This document shows, piece by piece, positions 38,901 through 56,856 of a DNA stretch of 64,000 nucleotides (position 1 is the first letter of the stretch; every line of letters begins with the position of its first letter). The translations under genes and the position numbers were made by a program. Source of the DNA: Saprospira grandis DSM 2844 (GTDB taxonomy: Bacteria; Bacteroidota; Bacteroidia; Chitinophagales; Saprospiraceae); assembly GCF_000275825.1 (NCBI RefSeq), contig NZ_JH719942.1, positions 996,988 through 1,060,987 of the forward strand, read 5' to 3'. The notes under the pieces were generated by a model. It was not told the origin of the DNA, did not search any database, and saw nothing but the letters and a program-made list of their open reading frames with translations.

Positions 38901-39356
38901 CTGCTCCTGCTTGATGCCTGCCACTCTGGAGAGGTCGATAAGGAGGTAGAAACCGAGAAGAAGTCGGTCAGTAGCTTTGCCCAAAACATCCTCAAAAGAA
39001 GCAAGTCGGGCAGTACCCTGATTCGGCCCAAAACAGGACTCAACAACTCTTTTGCCTATATGAAGGCCCTCTTTTCGGACCTAGAACAGCAGCGGGGAGT
39101 CACGGTTATTTCTGCCGCTGGCGGCTTCGAGCTGGCCTATGAATCCGATGAATGGGGCAACGGCCTCTTTACCTACGCCCTTTTAGAGGGCATCAAAAGC
39201 AAGAAAGCCGACCTCAATAATGATGGCCAAATCCCCATCCTAGAACTGCGGGATTTCCTTAGCCAAAGGGTGCTAGAGCTCAGCCAGGGCCAACAGCAAC
39301 CCACCGCCCGTCAATCCAATGTTTTCAATAATTTTATCCTCTACCGTTATGATTAG
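35925..39356 (+). CDS. Secreted WD40-repeat protein with a C-terminal caspase-like (peptidase C14 / CHAT-type) domain
   Basis: Signal peptide MMRYFLLLLLLWSSGALLAQ. WD40 repeats (GHHSNVRCLAFSEDGRFLATAGDDRSLRIWSM; GHKAAITDVGFSKDGQFLVS; GHNGGINDLAFDPLGKKAYSCSEDGLIKAWD). C-terminal His/Cys dyad context IVFYISSHG … NRLLLLDACHSG, typical of caspase-fold proteases. The track ORF starts at 35742, but those first 61 codons are REP sequence. Confidence 0.8.
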   Translation: MMRYFLLLLLLWSSGALLAQKEDIELVVSQGHHSNVRCLAFSEDGRFLATAGDDRSLRIWSMRLQQEYKVLWGHKAAITDVGFSKDGQFLVSIGSRLLCIWSMPEGKLLHQIEVDAQSKRLQFSETKPGHVMVRLPEGIAWVDLKTGAIDYSPKPFMRNWSNWILGQKTARVIIPERLDSIWAYSLAGQREQLFVGKGSYYKLLLSPNENYLAAYSGSRMAIDVWAYSSGKFIGSIEGLNPVQDFCFDISGERLWIMDLHAECKVYSCPQLQEELVVNKKSWGKEGLGQGDLVQVNIGQQIRPSPNGQFMGLAITRTEVNRKTGKMNDLRGLQLVDAQTGKERGLFKGHFKWITQLGLSPKGDKLLSVNMGKTRGLRSWSIKKGEIERYIHSSQSLSQSQDKKQLALLEFHEKSNPELTVYQLPSFRKLAKKKVDNCSAFALSGDGKKIVALQVDVNLKNPLNNRFYYSIWKLPNYKLEQEIEIESKESALPIFKSLLLDSAGDYLLAAAQNQAYSLELSSQKRTRFALPSSATYWRMLCLHPQQPALLFAVSEVVYNQEKKRVEELSKLLLYNYKTGELIEEVSSPKEGIIQSAAFSPDGQYLLTGQTAYQEVINFDVLLWDWPQKQLLCQFEGHNGGINDLAFDPLGKKAYSCSEDGLIKAWDIEKCALAASFIGYNELDYLIISPENYYKTSRSNTAGLGFRYAGDLYTYDQFDLRFNRPDKVLAPFTKAQRKLNIYTKAWKKRVRRLGFTEEQLERKLQLPELQIVNQLQLPIYVEDSLIQFQILAFDEQEELKKLRIFVNGVPYPQAEGIELSSRAGDSLRQELSIPLGQGPNKIQLSVVNAAGLESAKQSFQLAYQPKEKQASQLYFLGLGVSEFRDSSRNLKYPQKDAQDLGKALAHARKEEGVHQLLLDPNAPLEQLQKSARAFMLQAKINDQIVFYISSHGLLDDSLNYYLALPNSQFEQPQNGSWAYDDMEQLLDGLPCRNRLLLLDACHSGEVDKEVETEKKSVSSFAQNILKRSKSGSTLIRPKTGLNNSFAYMKALFSDLEQQRGVTVISAAGGFELAYESDEWGNGLFTYALLEGIKSKKADLNNDGQIPILELRDFLSQRVLELSQGQQQPTARQSNVFNNFILYRYD

Positions 39357-40512
39357 TTTCTTTTCTTTTGGGGCCTCCGCTGCGGCCAAAGGCCTTGCGG
39401 CGCTACGTTCCGGGGCTCGCAAGTCTGCTCGGCCCTTCGGCGGCATAGCCGCCTCGGTCTGCGGCTGCGCCGCCCCCCTCCACATCGCTAGGCCAAAACC
39501 AAAAACTGCCCTAGGGGCAGCCAAAAAGGGCCTTTCGGCCCTAGTACTAAATGCGCCGAATACCGCCCAACAGGCTGGCAAGTCGCCCTTTCTTTTGGGC
39601 CTTTTGCTGCTGTTGTTCTTGGGCCTACTGCCCGCCTGCCAGCCTGCTCAATCGGCAGAGGCAGAGCCCGCCCCCCTCCTTGCCAATAGTAACCCAATAG
39701 ATAGTTTGCCCCCAAGCCAACTCCCCCCCGCTATTCGCCAAGAGCCACAGCCTCGGCTAGCCCTATTTAGCGACAGTCTGACGACCCTAAGGATTGGGGG
39801 GCATCAGGTGGATATACAACTGCCCAAGACCCCCTTTAAGGGCAGTGTGATTATTTTGCCTGGCTATAATTTCCCGAAGGAGGATGCCTGCCAAAAAGCC
39901 CCTCTCTTTTGCCAGACCTTTTTGGAGGCGGGTTATCTACTCATTATGCCCGAGATGGGACGCTCCTTATATAGTAGTCAGTATTTTCCAGAAACCCAGG
40001 CTCGTTACAAGCGCTATCCCGACCAAAACTGGGTATTAGATAGTCTGCTCCCATATTTGCAGCTAGAATATGGGCTATTAGTAGATGGGCAAGACAATTT
40101 CTTAGTGGGCATTTCTACGGGGGGCCGAGGAGCGGCTCTTTTGGCCTTGGCTGCGCCCGAGTGTTGGACCGCAGTGGCCTGCCTGTCTGGAGATTTTGAC
40201 CAAAGCCAGATGCCCAATGATGGACTGATGCGCAACTTTTATGGACCTTATATACAATTTAGTCAGCGCTGGAAAACGGTGGATAATGTTATTGCTCGCA
40301 TAGACGACTGGCAAACCCCTATTTTTATTGGGCATGGCGGAGCCGATAAGGTGGTCCCGCCTGCCCAGTCTAAACAACTTTTTGATAGCTTGCAAAGCCG
40401 TTTAGATCAGGAGCTACTCTATTACTCTGCTCCCCCCAAGGCCGAGCACAACTATGCTTATTGGGGCGCTGAGGCCAAAAACATACTGGCCTTTTTTCAA
40501 TCATTGCCTTAG
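39319..40512 (+). CDS. Alpha/beta-hydrolase esterase (lipoprotein); start codon unresolved
   Basis: GxSxG nucleophile VGISTGGRGAALLA. IGHGGADKVVP and the C-terminal region are esterase-like. Lipobox …LLLLFLGLLPAC. The ATG at 39319 overlaps the upstream gene and reads through a REP copy. Probable true start is a TTG near 39595, just before the signal peptide. Confidence 0.6.
   Translation: MFSIILSSTVMISFFSFGASAAAKGLAALRSGARKSARPFGGIAASVCGCAAPLHIARPKPKTALGAAKKGLSALVLNAPNTAQQAGKSPFLLGLLLLLFLGLLPACQPAQSAEAEPAPLLANSNPIDSLPPSQLPPAIRQEPQPRLALFSDSLTTLRIGGHQVDIQLPKTPFKGSVIILPGYNFPKEDACQKAPLFCQTFLEAGYLLIMPEMGRSLYSSQYFPETQARYKRYPDQNWVLDSLLPYLQLEYGLLVDGQDNFLVGISTGGRGAALLALAAPECWTAVACLSGDFDQSQMPNDGLMRNFYGPYIQFSQRWKTVDNVIARIDDWQTPIFIGHGGADKVVPPAQSKQLFDSLQSRLDQELLYYSAPPKAEHNYAYWGAEAKNILAFFQSLP
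39366..39495. repeat. REP/MITE-like element
   Basis: ttttggggcctccgctgcggccaaaggccttgcggcgctacgttccggggctcgcaagtctgctcggcccttcgg … ccacatcgctaggcc. Confidence 0.8.
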
Positions 40513-40542
40513 CGGGCTGTTTTTTGTCTTGCTTTCTGCTTT

Positions 40543-40583
40543 GCCCCCTAGTTGCTTGCCGCAGCTAGGGGGCTTTGTTGTTT
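40543..40583 (+). terminator. Terminator candidate after the esterase gene
   Basis: gccccctag-ttgcttgccgcag-ctagggggc is a 9-bp stem followed by tttgttgttt. Confidence 0.4.
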
Positions 40584-40724
40584 GGGCTATGCGCTAGCTG
40601 AGACTATTTAAAATATGCTGCATTTATTTTTTATCGCCTAGGGACAAGCCCCTAGGCTAGCTTTTCGGACAGCCCTCTGCGAGGGCCTTTATTTTATTCC
40701 AACATACAAAATATTGAGGTTTCT

Positions 40725-40997
40725 CCTCGGAAGGGGTTACCCTACCCCTCAAGAGGGGTTACCCTACCCCTCAAGAGGGGTTACCCTACCCCTCAAGAGG
40801 GGTCACTCTACCCATCGGAAGGGGTTTCCCTACCCCTCAAGAGGGGTCACTCTACCCCTCGGGAGGGGTCACTCTATCCCTCGGGAGGGGTTACTCTACC
40901 CATCGGGAGGGGCTGCCCTACCCCTCAAGAGGGGTTTCCCTACCCATCGGGAGGGGTTACTCTACCCCTCAGGAGGGGTTACTCTACCCCTCGGGAG
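40725..40997. repeat. Tandem array of ~12 copies of a 22-bp hairpin-forming unit (consensus tacccctcaagaggggttaccc)
   Basis: Direct reading: …gaggggttaccctacccctcaagaggggttaccctacccctcaagaggggttaccctacccctc… with point variants (ggtcactctacccatcgg etc.). Each unit carries gaggggt/acccctc complementary arms. Confidence 0.9.
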
Positions 40998-41341
40998 GAA
41001 AATACTAGCAATAAAGAGGGGGAGATGGATTTAAAGACAATATAAAAACAGTCATTTACTCCTTTACATCACTACAGCTGAGCAACTTTTACAACCTTCT
41101 GACTGATAGCAATGCGCAGGCCCTCAGCTAGAAATAGTCCTTAAAACAACTGCTAACAAGAGCCAAAACTCTATAAAACACAAAAAAATAGCCTATTAAA
41201 GTATTTTTTATTAGTTATAACTTGCATTATAAAATTATTTACCCTATGTTTATAACGCAAATAACGCAAGAGCACATTGCTTTTACTAAAGAGCTCTAGT
41301 TGTTAGACATCTAATTCTTAATCAAATAAATACCTAGTACT

Positions 41342-41851
41342 ATGTCTAGAAGAAACATGATTAGCATTGAATTGCTTGCGGCTACGGTCCAGCAGATTCA
41401 GAGCGCATTCGAGACTATTGAGCAGTTGCTTGATGGTCATGTTGTAAACATCAGCCCGGAGGATCGTCAGCGTTATGGGAGTATAGATGAGCAGGCCAAA
41501 CTATTTATCTTTAAGGCGCATGATTTTTATCGGGCCAAGGGGCAGTTGCTTCCGAGCTACTTTGATACTGTGGAGTATGAAAAAGACTTTGAGGGGCGTA
41601 AACTATTTGAGCGTTTTGAACAAAAGGCGGTAGAATTACAGGAAAAAATTCGCGACACTCGGACGCTTTTGGATTATGATACCCTTCAGTATTCTTATAG
41701 TCTGTATCGACATCTAAAGAACATGAGCCAGGAAGACATTCCGGGCATTGATTTTTGGTTAGAGGAGATATCTCAGTTTTTCAAGCGTAGCGTTAACAAT
41801 GGTTTGGAAGAGCAGAGCAATGATGAGGTGGAGCCGCCTATTGTTGAGTAG
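41342..41851 (+). CDS. Hypothetical protein (169 aa, helical, acidic C-terminus)
   Basis: Clean ORF with ATG start. No recognisable motif. Lies in an AT-rich segment between the 22-bp array and a REP copy. Confidence 0.45.
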   Translation: MSRRNMISIELLAATVQQIQSAFETIEQLLDGHVVNISPEDRQRYGSIDEQAKLFIFKAHDFYRAKGQLLPSYFDTVEYEKDFEGRKLFERFEQKAVELQEKIRDTRTLLDYDTLQYSYSLYRHLKNMSQEDIPGIDFWLEEISQFFKRSVNNGLEEQSNDEVEPPIVE

Positions 41852-41934
41852 TTAGTTATTGTTTTAGATTTTGTGTTTATATATTGGTTACAGGCAAGCT
41901 CTACTTTTGTGGGGCTTGTTTTTTTTGTGGGTTT

Positions 41935-42168
41935 GGGTGGCGGCAGCAATGGCCCGCAGGGCCAAACGGCCACAACAAAGCCTTTAGGCTGCAGTTCGAC
42001 GACTGAAAGGAGTAACCGATGCGGCAGCAATGGCCCGCAGGGCCAAACGGCCTAGCGATGCGGCGGGGTGGCCGTCAGGCCAGACCGAGGAGCGAAGCGA
42101 CGAAGGGCCGAGCAGACCTGCGAGCCCCAAAGCGTAGCGCCGCAGCGAAGCTGCGGAGGCCCCAAATA
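41935..42168. repeat. REP/MITE-like element with an internal ~32-bp duplication
   Basis: cggcagcaatggcccgcagggccaaacggcc occurs twice. Followed by ggcctagcgatgcggcggggtggccgtcaggccagaccgagg … gggccgagcagacctgcgagccccaaagc … ggaggccccaaa. Confidence 0.8.
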
Positions 42169-42283
42169 AAAAGGCTGAAGTAAATTCTTGTTATCTTGCT
42201 GAAGCTTTGTTAAATTTGGGGCTTGTTTTTGGGGCTTAGGGTCCTGAGCAGATATTAACAAACCGTATTACGAATAATATATC

Positions 42284-42997
42284 ATGGGAAGAGCATTTGA
42301 ATATCGTAAGGAGCGCAAGATGAAGCGTTGGAGCCAGATGGCCAAGGTATTTACAAAAATTGGAAGAGAGATCGCATTGGCGGTAAAAGAGGGGGGCCCT
42401 GATCCGGAGAACAACCCGAAATTGCGTTTGGCGGTACAGAATTCCAAGGTGGCGAACATGCCTAAAAAGAACGTAGAGGCGGCCATTCAGCGGGCGACCT
42501 CTAAGGATGCGGAGGACTTGCAGGAGGTGGTATATGAGGGTTATGGGCCTCATGGTGTAGCTTTTATTATTGAGACCTTGACGGACAATCCGACTCGGAC
42601 GGTGGCCAATATGCGTTTTTATTTTAGTCGTTCTAATGGTTCATTGGGGACCTCGGGTTCGGTATCTTTTATGTTTGATCGTCAGGGTGAGTTTATCATT
42701 GATGCCGAGGGGTTGGATATGGAAGAGTTGGAGTTGGAATTGATTGATGGAGGAGCCGAAGAGATTGAGGTGAATGAGGATCAGATTTGTATTTATACGG
42801 CCTTTGAGGACTTTGGGAACATGCAAGCCAAGTTGGAAGAGTTGGGATTGGAGGTAAAAGAGGCTAGTTTGCAGCGTTTTGCCAATGCGAGTAAAAAGTT
42901 GGAAGATGCGGATCAAATTGCTGAGATAGAGAACCTTATTGATAAGTTTGAGGATGATGACGATGTGCAGAAGGTTTTCCACTCTATGGAAATTTAA
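42284..42997 (+). CDS. yebC: YebC/PmpR family DNA-binding transcriptional regulator
   Basis: MGRAFEYRKERKMKRWSQMAKVFTKIGREIALAVKEGGPDPENNPKLRLAVQNSKVANMPKKNVEAAIQRA is the classic YebC N-terminus. 237 aa. Confidence 0.9.
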   Translation: MGRAFEYRKERKMKRWSQMAKVFTKIGREIALAVKEGGPDPENNPKLRLAVQNSKVANMPKKNVEAAIQRATSKDAEDLQEVVYEGYGPHGVAFIIETLTDNPTRTVANMRFYFSRSNGSLGTSGSVSFMFDRQGEFIIDAEGLDMEELELELIDGGAEEIEVNEDQICIYTAFEDFGNMQAKLEELGLEVKEASLQRFANASKKLEDADQIAEIENLIDKFEDDDDVQKVFHSMEI

Positions 42998-43094
42998 AAT
43001 TTAGGCAAAAAAGTAGGCGCTTTATTTGGACAAAACAATTGGAGCGCCTATATTTGCATCGCACTTGAGGAAACGATAGTGCATAATTACTCTT

Positions 43095-43183
43095 GCCCAG
43101 GTGGTGGAATTGGTAGACACGCTACTTTGAGGGGGTAGTGCCTAATTACAGGCGTGCAAGTTCGACTCTTGTTCTGGGCACCA
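43095..43183 (+). tRNA. tRNA-Leu (anticodon GAG), type II with long variable arm, encoded CCA
   Basis: Acceptor GCCCAGG/TCTGGGC. D-loop with GG. Anticodon stem CTACT/GGTAG with loop TTGAGGG (U33, GAG, G37). Variable arm GCCT-AATTAC-AGGC. T-arm GCAAG-TTCGACT-CTTGT. Discriminator A plus CCA. Confidence 0.85.
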
Positions 43184-43187
43184 AAAA

Positions 43188-43221
43188 ATCTCGATATCGG
43201 AAGATGTCGGGATTTTTTTTT
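43188..43221 (+). terminator. Rho-independent terminator immediately after tRNA-Leu
   Basis: atctcgatatc-ggaa-gatgtcgggat forms an 11-bp stem with two G-U pairs, followed by T8-9. Confidence 0.6.
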
Positions 43222-43260
43222 GTAGCTTATAGTCATTCCTAAACCAAAGACTTCTAGTCA

Positions 43261-44478
43261 ATGACTAAAAACTACCAATCACTGCTACGGGCAGTAGAAC
43301 GAGAGCGAGAATTTCATAATAAGACAGCTAGGATTACAGGGGCGAACTACAATGTCTTTAGTCTATTGCAATTAGATCGAAAAGAAGATAAACTACATAG
43401 TCCCTTTATAGCGGATTTACTCCATCCTCAGGGCAGTCATCAGCAGGGGACAGTATTCTTAAAGGCCTTTATAAACATGCTCACTCAGAAATTTGAGGAT
43501 CTATCTAAACTAAGCAACTTAAAAGCAGAGCGGACTCGAGTCAATACTGAGGAATTTATAGGCAAAGTGAGAGCAAATGAAGGTGGTCGCATAGATATCT
43601 ATATTACAGATGGGCTACACACTATTGCAATCGAGAATAAAATTGATGCGGACGATCAAGAGAATCAACTATTGCGTTATGCTAATCATTTGAAAGGGAA
43701 AGAGAATACGGCTTTGCTCTACTTAAATCTAAAAGGGAGAGCTCCTTCAGAAAAGAGTACTAAGAGAAAATTAGTAGAAGGTACAGACTACTATGGGCTT
43801 TCTTATCAGAAAGATATTTTAACTTGGTTAGAGGACTGCAAGCGTATTGCAGTAGATCTACCTATTCTTAGAGAATGTTTGAAGCAGTATATTAACACTA
43901 TAAAAGAACTTTGCGGAATGAGCCTAAACGAAGACAAAAAGAAAGAAATAGAAAAGCTTATTAAGCATCATTTTGGGGCCGCATTAGATATTGCCACTCA
44001 TTTTGAAGCAGTTCGGCTTCAAATTATAAATGATTTTAGGATAGACCTTATTGACTACTTAACAGAAAACCTAGATAGTGCCATTTATCGGGTAGAGCCT
44101 TGCTTCGAGATTAACGCTAAGTACTCTAAAATTGTAATTCTGCCGCATAAAGAAAAGCACCCTTATAAACTTTACTTTAACATTGAATCCTTTAGTGCTG
44201 AGGGGTATTGGGGAGGCGACCTATATGTTGGTCTTCTCGCTAACCCTGGTCGTGGAGGCCTCAGTGACCAAGAAAAAAAAATTCTATCGGGAGAAGGCTT
44301 AAAGGGCTGGCTTCCTAAAAAGGAAAACTTAAATGTAAACACCAAAGAAGAAGCAACACTCAAACAGCTTAGTCAAGAAAAAAGTCGTAAGCAGCTAGTA
44401 GAACAACTAGGGCTACAGTGCGTACAGTTTATCCAAGAGCATGAGGACTTGCTAAAAAATTTATACAGGAAGTTTTAG
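43261..44478 (+). CDS. PD-(D/E)xK nuclease-family protein (PDDEXK_4-like N-domain plus uncharacterised C-domain)
   Basis: N-domain …EDKLHSPFIADLLHPQGSHQQGTVFLKAFINML… then GGRIDIYITDGLHTIAIENKIDADDQENQLLRYANHL (D…E-N-K catalytic-core pattern). AT-rich codon usage unlike the flanking genome. Confidence 0.55.
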   Translation: MTKNYQSLLRAVEREREFHNKTARITGANYNVFSLLQLDRKEDKLHSPFIADLLHPQGSHQQGTVFLKAFINMLTQKFEDLSKLSNLKAERTRVNTEEFIGKVRANEGGRIDIYITDGLHTIAIENKIDADDQENQLLRYANHLKGKENTALLYLNLKGRAPSEKSTKRKLVEGTDYYGLSYQKDILTWLEDCKRIAVDLPILRECLKQYINTIKELCGMSLNEDKKKEIEKLIKHHFGAALDIATHFEAVRLQIINDFRIDLIDYLTENLDSAIYRVEPCFEINAKYSKIVILPHKEKHPYKLYFNIESFSAEGYWGGDLYVGLLANPGRGGLSDQEKKILSGEGLKGWLPKKENLNVNTKEEATLKQLSQEKSRKQLVEQLGLQCVQFIQEHEDLLKNLYRKF

Positions 44479-44588
44479 GCTGCGAGGCAGAGGAAGTAAG
44501 CTAGGAAATAAAAAAGCATTATGGATTAGTACTTAAGCTCTAATTAAACGTATCTTACTTCTAATTAAAACACCTAATATAGAAACAA

Positions 44589-46046
44589 ATGATTCGCATA
44601 AATCATATACATATAGATGGGTTTAAAGACTCTGAAGACCAAAAAGATATCCAACTAGCCCGTGGTCCTATTACAGTTATTTATGGAGAGAATGGCTCTG
44701 GTAAAACCACTTTACTTCAACTGCTTTTTGCCTTTCTTAACAAAGATGAACTTACACTCAACCGTCAACAAGTACAAAAAATAGAAATTAACTACACAAT
44801 TGACGGCCTAGAGAAAGTAGCCTCTGCTAAAAACATAAGTACCTGGACAGTAGGTTTTGAATGGAATAACTGGGAAGAGCTCACACAAATCAAGAGTATC
44901 TTTCTAAGCGTTATGAGAAGTTCTAATGAAAGCAAAACAAGAGCAACACACGATAACCAACACTTTATTTTAGGTGATTTTTCGGATGAACGAGACTTAA
45001 GAGAAACGCTCAAAAAACTAGAACAACTACTTTTTGAGGCTAATAAAGAGCAATATCTTGGTGTACTTCATAGCTCTATACGGAAAATAAGATTAGCTAT
45101 AGATGATTTTTATCATAATTACAAAATGGATTTCAAGGGAGCCTCTCCTAAAAAATTACTAGAGATTCTAAATCAATTAGATTTACTGATTAGTATTGCT
45201 TCTAAAAAGGGAAGCCAAGAATTCAGTTCAAAATTGCAAGAATTAAGTAGTAAGCTTCAGCATTTTTGTACCATGAGCGGCTATTCAGATCTTGAACCAA
45301 TTAAGTTTGAGGATGATATGAGCCATATTCCTCACTATAATGTTCATCAACTATCTGCTAACGAAATCAGTAAAATTCTGACTAACTATTATAAAGCAGG
45401 GCAAGAACAAATTAGAGAAAATATCAACTTAGCCTTTTTTGACACTATTGAAAAAGCAATAGAAATAGAGACTGAAAAAAATAGCTTTGATCTTCCTAAG
45501 GATTTTAATACCCGTATTGCTAGACATGCTGACTATATTCTTCAAGCAGTACAAATTCACACATCAAGTCTAGCTGATAAAGTTCGTATGTTCTTAAAGG
45601 AAGGGGAAAATGCTCCTATCCCAGATAGTAAAATATTTAGAGCTCTTCTTCTTGAAGTGCTAAAAAGTGCTGAGCAAAAAAATCTAAAGCTTGAGGCTAT
45701 AGAAAAACTTCAAGAAGTTTTCAATTCCCATTTGTACAAAGGCAAAAAACTAATTATAACAAAAGAACAAGCCTATATCTCTATAAAAGAAAATAGAGGG
45801 CATACACTCCAAGAGTTATCAAGTGGTGAAAAGCAACTACTAAATATATTGACTTTCATTCTTTTATTGAGTAGAGAACGAAAACTCATCCTAATTGATG
45901 AGCCCGAAATCTCTCTTAACATAAAATGGCAGCGCAACTTCATTCCACTCTTGCAAGAGCTTAATCAAGATGCACAAATCATTGTTGCTTCTCATAGCCC
46001 TTCTATTGCGTACAAAAAAACAGAAACACTAGTAGAGTTGCTCTAA
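44589..46046 (+). CDS. ABC/SMC-like (AAA_15/21-type) ATPase, AriA-like
   Basis: Walker A IYGENGSGKTTLLQLLFAF near the N-terminus. Long helical insert. Signature LSSGEKQLLNILTFILL. Walker B KLILIDEPEISLN. H-loop IVASHSPS. Confidence 0.6.
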   Translation: MIRINHIHIDGFKDSEDQKDIQLARGPITVIYGENGSGKTTLLQLLFAFLNKDELTLNRQQVQKIEINYTIDGLEKVASAKNISTWTVGFEWNNWEELTQIKSIFLSVMRSSNESKTRATHDNQHFILGDFSDERDLRETLKKLEQLLFEANKEQYLGVLHSSIRKIRLAIDDFYHNYKMDFKGASPKKLLEILNQLDLLISIASKKGSQEFSSKLQELSSKLQHFCTMSGYSDLEPIKFEDDMSHIPHYNVHQLSANEISKILTNYYKAGQEQIRENINLAFFDTIEKAIEIETEKNSFDLPKDFNTRIARHADYILQAVQIHTSSLADKVRMFLKEGENAPIPDSKIFRALLLEVLKSAEQKNLKLEAIEKLQEVFNSHLYKGKKLIITKEQAYISIKENRGHTLQELSSGEKQLLNILTFILLLSRERKLILIDEPEISLNIKWQRNFIPLLQELNQDAQIIVASHSPSIAYKKTETLVELL

Positions 46047-46058
46047 ACCCTTAGTTTG

Positions 46059-47003
46059 ATGATCTCAAATGATATTCACGAATGTTTAGCTGCTGCAATT
46101 ATGGCTGGCAGTCCCACCATCCTCATAGAAGGAAAAGACGATGAAGAAGTCTATACCAATATTAGCAATGAACTAGGGCTAACATTAGAGTTTCTCCCCA
46201 TAGATTTTGTAGACACAACTGGCTATGGGGTTTTGGGTAATTGTGATCAGCTTGTAGCTAGCCTAAGGGACTTAGACAACAGCTGTAAAGACCCTAAATG
46301 GATCAAATTTATTGGTGGAGTTATAGACCTAGATAGTCGCAGCTTTGCCAATCAAATTAGTAGGCCGCCTAGGAATCTATACATATTAAAGATGTATTCT
46401 ATTGAGTCCTACTTTGTTAATCAGGAGAGCTTTATTGCCGTATTCAATAGTCTCAACTCTGCACCTATTTCCAATGCGCTTAAAGACAGTTACTACAATG
46501 ATTTTAATAGCTTCTTTGCCCCTGTAGAAGAGGAGCTTTTTTGGGTGGCTACAGAGGCGCTACAAAATGTTTGTGGGGCTAATCCTAGTCCTGAAATTAC
46601 ATACGGTGTTGACTTTAGTTTTAAAGGCTATATGCAAGCGCCTTCAGTCAACCCTAAGCGGCAGATAGTTGATCGGATTCAAGCTAAAAAGGAAGCTTTA
46701 AGAAGTTGGTTAAACAATGCTTTTAGTACTGCCGTTATACAAAAACAGCTCATCATTAAGGGGAAATGGTGGCTATCCGTTTTTTTAGATATTATTGTTG
46801 AATATGCTAAAAAGCTAGAAGCAGACTGCAGTTTCGCCCCTTCTGGTCCTTGTCGCTATTGTGCTATAGAAGATAAAGGTAACTGTCAATTCAAACTCAA
46901 AGTTAAAAGTCCAACGCCAGCGGCACTTAAGGCAATGGCCTATCAGACCTCCGTATCTGATCAAGATCCTGGGCTCTGCAATTTTCTGGAGTTGTTTAAT
47001 TAA
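46059..47003 (+). CDS. Small TOPRIM-like protein (DUF4435/AriB-like) coupled to the upstream ATPase
   Basis: PTILIEGKDDEEVY (TOPRIM Glu in an hEG motif) and, ~65 aa later, IGGVIDLDS (DxD). 12-bp gap from the upstream ATPase. The track ORF begins at TTG 46056; ATG 46059 preferred. Confidence 0.5.
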   Translation: MISNDIHECLAAAIMAGSPTILIEGKDDEEVYTNISNELGLTLEFLPIDFVDTTGYGVLGNCDQLVASLRDLDNSCKDPKWIKFIGGVIDLDSRSFANQISRPPRNLYILKMYSIESYFVNQESFIAVFNSLNSAPISNALKDSYYNDFNSFFAPVEEELFWVATEALQNVCGANPSPEITYGVDFSFKGYMQAPSVNPKRQIVDRIQAKKEALRSWLNNAFSTAVIQKQLIIKGKWWLSVFLDIIVEYAKKLEADCSFAPSGPCRYCAIEDKGNCQFKLKVKSPTPAALKAMAYQTSVSDQDPGLCNFLELFN

Positions 47004-56256: not shown

Positions 56257-56287
56257 GGCCGATGGGCTAAAGCCCATTTGCGCTGAG

Positions 56288-56500
56288 CTATTCTGCAGCT
56301 GCAAAACGGCATCTTACAGTTGCGCTAAGCTATTCTGCAACTGCAAAACCGCATATTCCATTTGGAGGAAGCTATTCTGCAACTGCAAAACGGCATCTTA
56401 CAGTTGCGGCAAGCTATTCTGCAGCTGCAAAACGGCATCTTACAGTTGCGGCAAGCTATTCTGAATTTGTGAAACGGCAGTTGTAAACTCGGGGATACTA
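56288..56500. repeat. Tandem array: four near-identical 42-bp units (ctattctgcagctgcaaaacggcatcttacagttgcggcaag) plus a degenerate fifth
   Basis: Units begin at 56288, 56330, 56372 and 56414. Each contains complementary arms gcaactg/cagttgc around a 15-nt loop. The second unit is divergent in its distal half. Confidence 0.9.
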
Positions 56501-56856
56501 TTCGCAATTTGGGGGGACTGTTCATAATTTTGTGTATCCGAATAAAATTTTGGTATTTGGCCAACAGTCGCCTAGGAGCAGAAAGGGCGTAAACAGTCTC
56601 CAAAATGTTAGATAATATCTCATAGCCATGGACTAAAGTCCATGGTTGTGGGGCTATGCAAAGAGCGGGCTAAAGCCCTTGTTTGCTGATAGGGCCTAGG
56701 GAAAGAGAAAATCCCCTCGAATGAGGGGATGGCAATTTTTTAGTTAGCCTAGGGCCTTGGCCCTAGGGTTTCTATAAATTTTATGAGAGGAATATATAGT
56801 AGGCAGCAAAAAGGGCATACACAAAATTTCAAACAGTCTTGCAAAAATTCGTCCTA

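Follow-up and report, generated by a model that had tools for sequence, protein, structure and literature searches.

We found that the array of tandem 22-bp repeats ahead of a 169-aa protein gene in a 64,000-nucleotide stretch of Saprospira grandis DSM 2844 DNA (the whole stretch is here called the window, and its positions are used throughout) is one instance of a widespread and apparently undescribed pairing, in Bacteroidota and their relatives, of a gene family with helically phased arrays. Whatever the mechanism, the array is very probably a conserved functional partner of this gene family. The gene, located at 41342-41851, is the key to the array. The first-pass annotation, made from the sequence alone, had called it an orphan hypothetical gene; this label does not hold, as the gene belongs to a family with 743 cluster representatives that is linked to arrays. 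Our literature search retrieved no description of a module made of a gene plus a phased array.

Tandem Repeats Finder placed the array at 40725-40998, with a period of 22, 12.5 copies, 83% matches and 0% indels (score 331). A period of 44 with 6.2 copies also fits the same interval and scores higher (390). When cut in register, the array consists of 11 full units from position 40744, a degenerate unit at 40722 and a truncated unit at 40986. Each unit is a 16-bp palindrome, ACCCCTC-nn-GAGGGGT (7-2-7), followed by a 6-bp spacer (TACCCT, CACTCT and others). The arms, at unit positions 1-7 and 10-16, are nearly invariant, and the variable sites are concentrated in the central dinucleotide (AA, GG, AG or GA) and at spacer positions 17, 18 and 20. 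Thus, the original description of about 12 tandem palindromic units with gaggggt/acccctc arms was confirmed, both by Tandem Repeats Finder and by the register.

The unit is specific to this place. The 16-mer ACCCCTCAAGAGGGGT, allowing up to 3 mismatches, has 18 matches on both strands of the window, and all of them lie within the array (0.56 expected by chance); the search for further copies of the 22-mer, proposed in the first-pass annotation, therefore found none elsewhere in the 64 kb. Likewise, a scan of representative genomes with GAGGGGTNNCNCTACCCNTC returned 103 stretches with isolated chance matches (1-2 each) and no array. The possibility that the repeat was an assembly artefact had also been raised. 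Assemblies from three independent read sets (SRR3923855, SRR071399 and SRR345599) agree with the right-hand part of the array at every base, and therefore the repeat sequence is not an artefact of assembly. All three of these assemblies end inside the array, and the copy number of 12.5 comes from a single assembly (GCF_000275825.1).

To characterize the protein family, we searched 1.84 billion cluster representatives with a profile, which recovered the 743 proteins at E<=1e-3 (128 at E<=1e-10). Family members are nearly all 150-175 aa long, and the Saprospira proteins align over their full length. The closest relatives of the 169-aa protein are annotated as S. grandis, and the sources named for the family are Cyclobacteriaceae, Flammeovirgaceae, Reichenbachiella, Aquiflexum, Algoriphagus, Flavobacterium, Ignavibacteria, Melioribacteraceae and Treponema. 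The proteins are acidic, with an isoelectric point of 4.75 for the window protein and a family median of 5.2. No model in Pfam, NCBIfam, PHROG or PADLOC matches the family, and no sequence in the PDB does. An AlphaFold2 model built from a 115-sequence alignment (mean predicted local distance difference test score, pLDDT, 87.8) consists of five helices and nothing else; a prediction from only 4 sequences was unusable (pLDDT 47). Fold searches with the predicted model gave no match, including none to a ParB-like, winged-helix or recognisable DNA-binding fold. The family is absent from IMG/VR viral contigs and, save one weak partial match, from 72,556 plasmids (PLSDB). Many members are known solely from contigs of ~1 kb, which is consistent with short-read assemblies breaking at the adjoining array (L104-L106, L113 and L199 in our locus numbering).

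Three distant members gave the first hint that the array is linked to the gene. In all of them, degenerate repeats lie downstream of the gene at multiples of 21 bp: 84 (4 x 21) in Aquiflexum, 21, 42, 63 and 84 in Reichenbachiella, and 63 in a Melioribacteraceae genome. We sampled 80 metagenome loci of the main subfamily, using the subfamily II alignment for fetching, and scored them by the z-score of the 21/42/63-bp autocorrelation in 252-bp windows against control windows of the same loci. An array was called when the score exceeded the 99th percentile of the controls within 350 nt of the gene. This score was used instead of a strict lag-21 segment scoring, which missed degenerate arrays (69 of 85 scored as 'none'). 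Of 67 testable loci, 55 (82%) had a 21-bp-periodic array within the 350 nt downstream of the gene. No such array was found upstream in 66 loci, and only 4 of 340 control blocks were positive (Mann-Whitney p = 2e-31). When the autocorrelation test was applied to the same loci at periods of 17, 19, 20, 22, 23 and 25, nothing was detected. The arrays of these relatives have a median length of ~300 bp (~14 units) and lie a median of 82 nt past the stop codon, and a 42-bp super-period is common among them, as the 44-bp one is in the window.

The linkage extends to subfamily I, to which the window gene belongs. One relative (L200) carries, downstream of its gene, ~9 units of 22 bp, ACGGCCT-GC-AGGCCGT plus a 6-bp spacer, which reads as exactly the 7-2-7+6 design of the window in an unrelated sequence. 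Another member (L205) shows a 22-bp signal from an array downstream of its gene. In addition, locus L199 ends in a 21-bp array, and a Flavobacterium locus has only an ambiguous AT-rich periodic signal, upstream of its gene. One 752-kb contig (Ga0208243_1000003) carries two paralogous gene-plus-array modules ~246 kb apart (L122 and L131), whose repeat units differ. We propose to define the module as a family gene with ~10-20 units, at an exact period of 21 or 22 bp, within ~0.5 kb of it. The window has the family gene and 12.5 units of 22 bp within ~0.5 kb, and lacks the downstream position.

Apart from a type IX secretion system (T9SS) cargo gene, no gene neighbour is conserved in the 80 loci; the neighbours are otherwise unrelated chromosomal genes. 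A T9SS-secreted protein gene lies upstream and on the same strand in 13 of the 80 loci (L144, L151, L155, L156, L160-L163, L167, L169, L170, L188 and L190), and one such gene lies downstream; L118 is also among the T9SS loci. These cargo proteins have a common C-terminus of the Por_Secre_tail type and unrelated N-terminal domains.

Next, we compared the window with the other Saprospira genomes. Three further Saprospira loci have a 22- or 43-44-bp array ahead of their gene copy, each of its own repeat sequence. Genes that flank the module are 94-96% identical between the window and S. grandis Lewin, while the 169-aa gene with its promoter region is only 84% identical; the homologue is syntenic (83% identity). 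The interval 40590-41175, with the array inside, does not align to Lewin apart from repeat-to-repeat matches. Lewin has an array of its own at the equivalent place (L109 9421-9750), in a 22-bp phase and with ~15 units. Its main units differ from those of the window: ATCCTCGGGAGGAC... and ATCCTCTTGACCAT... take turns, which makes the period 44 bp, and one edge of the array retains a few units of the ACCCCTC type. In genome CP110854 the homologue is 61-65% identical and has other surroundings, with a GmrSD gene ahead of it and a Y1 transposase gene behind it. The array upstream of the homologue has a period of 43 with 5.3 copies and a sequence unlike both the window and Lewin. The Lewin and CP110854 arrays lie 300-560 bp upstream of the gene, and the array is upstream in all Saprospira copies. 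The array that accompanies a 96%-identical copy of the gene, recovered from a read set, keeps the arms of the window. Palindromy is strong in the window array, weak in Lewin and nearly absent in CP110854. The context of the CP110854 module, between the GmrSD gene and the 135-aa Y1 transposase gene (L111 10678-11085), suggests that the module can relocate. The GmrSD gene is preceded by genes of the DUF4007 and PAPS-reductase types, likely a defence cluster.

In relatives the units vary from locus to locus, and a typical one has both an A-run (AAAAAG) and a short core with dyad symmetry, for example TGAATTAATTCA, GGTAATTAATTACC, GCAACGTTGC or GAACnnGTTC. When array similarity was expressed as the fraction of shared repeated 8-mers, it was 0.63 for proteins more than 90% identical, 0.21 at 80-90% and 0.03 below 70%. 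Meanwhile, the 21-bp period remains exact as the sequence of the array changes. The array sequences turn over faster than the protein, with the period, the approximate length and a tendency towards dyad symmetry being retained. The 8-mer turnover, the exact period and the variable palindromy together suggest that selection acts on the period rather than on the sequence.

Many arrays of differing sequence end in a long G/C-rich hairpin of near-constant sequence, GGGGTAC-TTCnGAA-GTACCCC, often extended to GTGGAGGGGGG...CCCCCTCCCAC. This hairpin occurs in 11 of 83 loci, with a background of 0.004 per kb (examples are L131 3820-3865, L124 2714-2765, L123, L165, L141 and L117 6736-6766), and the Saprospira unit resembles it.

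How might such a module work? Our preferred explanation, held tentatively and at slightly less than even confidence, is that the array is a DNA-level set of dyad-symmetric sites in a two-turn phase, on which a higher-order nucleoprotein complex would start to form, and that it serves the adjacent gene as its partner in cis. The module would consist of a small, acidic, helical protein and ~12-15 repeat units at a spacing of 21-22 bp, on the chromosome, and the array would work as double-stranded DNA. Each unit would be a dyad-symmetric site for a dimeric protein. Since the units are spaced two helical turns apart, all sites would lie on one face of the helix, and this could allow a cooperative higher-order complex to assemble, as on the sopC and parC centromeres or on iterons. 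The product of the linked gene would be the most economical candidate for the binder, and the complex may serve in positioning or anchoring, titration or insulation. Our analysis shows the array, its linkage to the family in several lineages, the conserved period, the rapid turnover of sequence and some dyad symmetry; action as DNA, binding by a protein and the role of the adjacent protein as binder are inferred. The linkage in Saprospira and across the family, the 7-2-7 design of L200 in an unrelated sequence and the sopC-like geometry count in favor of this explanation. So do the conserved arms, the variable centre and spacer and the lack of indels in the window array. The differing arrays of the two paralogous modules, together with the fall of array similarity as proteins diverge, were counted in favor of cognate-pair behaviour. 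Finally, equal foldability of both strands, terminators ahead of the arrays, no promoter enrichment and no Rfam match are pointers to DNA over RNA. The first-pass annotation had offered two alternatives, a string of 7-bp hairpins or evenly spaced sites phased at two turns. The comparative data favor the latter, as the exact 21- or 22-bp period is kept despite sequence change. The hairpin string is not a conserved feature, given the loss of palindromy in Lewin and CP110854, the AT-rich cores of relatives and the strand-equal foldability; the idea of phased binding sites is the better one.

Several observations weigh against the proposed nucleoprotein array. The A-runs are biased 2.2-fold towards the gene strand (404 AAAA vs 184 TTTT), which hints at a strand-specific constraint. 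In many arrays the units have only moderate dyad symmetry, with complementarity of 40-60% across 7 pairs; it reaches at least 60% in just 6 of 66 arrays, and in CP110854 the symmetry is almost absent. The partner protein is acidic, and its predicted model shows no DNA-binding fold that can be recognised. We found no enrichment of array motifs upstream of the gene itself, and so no sign of autoregulation, and the array lies upstream in Saprospira and downstream in most relatives. Lastly, arrays differ even between proteins that are 80-85% identical, so that either rapid switching of specificity would be needed or the exact sequence would be irrelevant.

A different explanation, which we consider unlikely but worth weighing first among the rivals, is that the array acts as RNA. 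Transcription would yield a 5' leader or a separate RNA in Saprospira and would read through into the array as 3' untranslated region in relatives, and the string of short hairpins in this RNA would bind or titrate a protein (as a sponge, or in the manner of a type III antitoxin) or stabilise the mRNA. The window array does fold better than its shuffles, with z-scores of -4.4 on the plus strand and -3.6 on the minus strand, and the strand bias of the A-runs and the conserved long G/C hairpin, with its TTCG-type loop sequence, at the end of many arrays would also fit. Moreover, the array of the Reichenbachiella locus (L117) lies between the stop codon and the sole terminator. However, in 36 arrays the two strands exceed their shuffles in self-complementarity to the same degree (median z -2.65 and -3.05), with no asymmetry of foldability. 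In about half of the loci, a terminator or long GC hairpin stands between the gene and the array (a strict intrinsic terminator in 20 of 66, a long GC hairpin in 30 of 66), and Bacteroidota-type promoter motifs are not enriched before the arrays on either strand. Many of the cores, as AT-rich palindromes around a centre of 2 bp, would form poor hairpins in RNA. Rfam gave no match at gathering score in the window or on the arrays of 12 related loci, where E<=1 yields sub-threshold noise. We also compared G:T with A:C wobbles in the palindrome arms, and there were too few clean palindromes for a verdict.

Among RNA systems, the type III toxin-antitoxins deserve attention. The ToxI RNA is made of tandem ~36-45-nt units upstream of a gene for a ~170-aa protein, and repeat and protein diverge together; in ToxIN-like systems the two belong to a single transcription unit, with just a terminator in between. 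The window resembles this in its tandem units upstream of a ~170-aa gene and in the joint divergence of repeat and protein, and the 43-44-nt super-period also recalls ToxI/ToxN. It differs in having a spacer of 344 nt with its own promoter-like element, and in the 55 of 67 relatives the array is downstream, so the usual gene-then-array order is the opposite of that in type III systems. We rejected membership in the ToxN/AbiQ/CptN/TenpN group: the protein, all-helical in its model and acidic, belongs to no toxin family and has no match in Pfam or PADLOC, and the gene order is wrong in most relatives.

Less likely still is that the array is a by-product of hairpins, in which slippage amplified a terminator or a hairpin like those of repetitive extragenic palindromic (REP) elements at the 3' or 5' end of the gene. 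Such hairpin clusters would persist by insulating or stabilising transcripts, as bacterial interspersed mosaic elements (BIMEs) do, with no dedicated binding protein. The units look like hairpins of the terminator type, and the Saprospira unit ACCCCTCGGGAGGGGT resembles the conserved hairpin at the array ends of relatives (GGGGTACCTCGGAGGTACCCC in L117 is one such); the genome has another intergenic tandem array with no link to the family (56286-56507); and the fast turnover is satellite-like. Yet this explanation does not account for arrays at 82% of family loci across phyla against ~1% of control windows, nor for an exact 21-bp period in unrelated sequences, nor for a unit that is not dispersed in the window. 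As in REP elements and BIMEs, the palindromic units are extragenic and in tandem, but they are locus-specific within the 64 kb and tied to one gene family. With all 18 motif matches of the 64-kb window inside the array, we rejected the REP/BIME assignment. The array unit is also unlike the dispersed REP-like elements of this genome, in line with the earlier statement that it is unrelated to the common REP family. As for REP-associated tyrosine transposases, a Y1_Tnp gene stands beside the module in CP110854, and none stands beside it in the window or in Lewin.

It is highly improbable, in our estimation, that the locus is a relic or active replication origin (iterons, an AT-rich unwinding element and Rep) or the partition centromere of an integrated plasmid-like element. 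Geometrically, the array's closest analogue is the F-plasmid sopC, and iterons come near as well. F sopC consists of 12 direct repeats, each with a 16-bp inverted repeat that is bound by SopB (PMC3177203). The window has 12 palindromes of this size, with 7-bp arms and a 2-bp centre, its array adjoins a gene, and the 42-44-bp super-period of many arrays is near the 43 bp of sopC. Most relatives have the array downstream of the gene, the position that sopC takes relative to sopB. Against this likeness, the window unit is 22 bp and not 43, the partner is small, acidic and helical with no ParB-like fold predicted, and the module is chromosomal and absent from plasmids. We rejected a sopC-like partition system: the repeat carries 16-bp inverted repeats, but it has no parA or parB neighbours among the eight proteins scanned (35742-47003) and the family is absent from PLSDB, one weak partial match aside, and from IMG/VR. 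Around the array lie an esterase gene, the family gene, YebC and a defence islet; the AAA ATPase of this islet is of the AriA kind, not ParA.

Iterons measure 17-22 bp, with 22 bp in R6K and pPS10 and up to seven copies in R6K (PMC4980987). The window shares with the R6K and pPS10 origins a layout of tandem 22-bp direct repeats, an AT-rich stretch and an adjoining gene, and the appearance of the CP110854 module in another context, beside a transposase, would also suit this reading. The differences are that the window has at least 12 units, that no Rep-type protein is present and the family is not carried on plasmids, and that the AT-rich tract contains a conserved promoter-like element. No DnaA box (TTATCCACA-like, up to 1 mismatch) was found in 40513-41341, and no switch in GC skew was found. 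An iteron origin was rejected: the repeat size agrees, but we detected no Rep initiator in Pfam, NCBIfam or as a winged-helix fold, and no DnaA boxes in the gap or skew switch. None of the eight neighbouring proteins scanned (35742-47003) has a Rep, ParA or ParB domain, and the near-absence of the family from plasmids and its absence from viral contigs, together with the unrelated chromosomal neighbours in the 80 loci (the 13 T9SS-cargo genes aside), also speak against an origin or centromere. In the type II parC/ParR systems, contiguous short repeats (ten of 11 bp in R1, 20-bp tandem repeats in pSK41) are coated cooperatively by a small dimeric protein to form a superhelical complex. The window array has the same contiguous, short, helix-phased repeats, but there is no ParM-type NTPase, no ribbon-helix-helix fold is predicted and the setting is chromosomal.

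Finally, we give almost no credence to the idea that the array encodes a 106-aa protein with a 22-aa repeat. Such a frame is present, but it starts with TTG and has no Pfam match. The unit has no stop codon in any plus-strand phase, and for this reason all three plus frames are open across the array, while every minus frame is rich in stops. The periods of the Saprospira arrays are not multiples of 3. The arrays of relatives differ in sequence and period, and on either strand only 11-13 of 62 stay open for 90% or more of their length. We consequently agree with the first-pass annotation that this frame is an artefact; it should receive no gene call, and the 169-aa gene should lose its 'orphan' label. 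The earlier view that this is no CRISPR array is equally sound, since the units are contiguous, the 6-bp 'spacer' is itself repeated rather than unique, and Pfam finds no Cas domain in the eight neighbouring proteins (35742-47003).

The features of the locus are collected in Table 1. The array lies in a gap of 829 bp (40513-41341), given as 830 bp before, between an esterase-like gene (39319-40512) and the family gene. The stretch that follows the array is AT-rich, as had been described (GC 0.31-0.36 at 41000-41400), and aligns with Lewin only in its 3' part, from 41176. Within it, an element of 46 bp is 85% identical to L111 9846-9891 while the surrounding DNA fails to align, and it is kept in all three Saprospira genomes (window, Lewin and CP110854). 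Bacteroidota promoters have a -33/-7 consensus of TTG and TAnnTTTG. The element comes close to it and is a putative promoter. Because this promoter-like element is conserved, the tract is most simply read as the promoter and leader of the gene, and it most likely comprises the promoter and 5' untranslated region. On the other side, the first of three hairpins (40543-40573) is terminator-like and belongs to the esterase gene, and the other two (40636-40657 and 40672-40686) are REP-like; together they would separate the array from upstream transcription.

Table 1 Features of the array locus in the window.
Feature	Position	Strand	Description
Tandem array	40722..40998	.	12.5 x 22-bp units with a weak 44-bp super-period; Tandem Repeats Finder, in-register units, palindrome list
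Partner gene	41342..41851	+	169-aa acidic protein, all-helical in its model; 'RYGS' subfamily of an uncharacterised family
AT-rich spacer	40999..41341	+	GC 0.31-0.36; from array to gene, 344 nt
Promoter-like element	41211..41256	+	TTG at 41222-41224, 20 nt, TAtgTTTa at 41245-41252
Three GC-rich hairpins	40543..40686	+	upstream of the array; terminator scan
Shadow open reading frame	40714..41034	+	106 aa, TTG start; by-product of the stop-free unit, no gene

Dispersed GC-rich REP-like elements flank the module at 39360-39498, 40600-40690 and 42024-42170, and have multiple copies in two other Saprospira genomes; the one at 40600-40690 recurs at three places in L111. These elements create spurious reading frames and N-terminal extensions, such as the first ~90 residues of the esterase-like gene 39319-40512. 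Further downstream, a defence islet of low GC content (0.39) occupies 43261-47003, between yebC and a histidine-phosphatase gene, where S. grandis Lewin has other genes. It contains a PDC-S26 candidate (PD-(D/E)XK, E = 7e-117) and a PARIS-like pair, AriA (44589-46046) and AriB (46056-47003, DUF4435). The other intergenic array mentioned above (56286-56507), which is unrelated, has a period of 42 with ~5 copies and inverted repeats CTGCAACTG...CAGTTGCGG. It lies downstream of a transaldolase-like gene, and no 160-aa family member was found nearby.

Taken more broadly, the locus may represent a widespread two-part system, not described before, on the chromosomes of Bacteroidota, Ignavibacteria and some spirochaetes, in which a small, acidic, helical protein is paired with a private, fast-evolving, satellite-like array; we regard this as possible, and are more doubtful of it than of the phased DNA sites themselves. 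In such a system only the helical phase (21-22 bp) and the rough length (~250-300 bp) of the array would be conserved, and the predicted fold of the protein matches no solved structure. If this is true, the module would be a bacterial counterpart of the fast-evolving satellites of the centromere type, and would form a specific nucleoprotein body without a partition NTPase or a replication initiator, so that orthogonal copies could coexist in one genome. The natural orthogonal pairs of protein and array could then be useful as chromosomal tags or synthetic scaffolds. The linkage also explains a nuisance of assembly, as short-read assemblies break here and leave many family members on ~1-kb contigs. 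If it holds, thousands of loci seen as a hypothetical protein plus an odd tandem repeat become one definable system. Sequences are replaced but the phasing at exactly two turns stays, and this is strong evidence of selection on DNA geometry.

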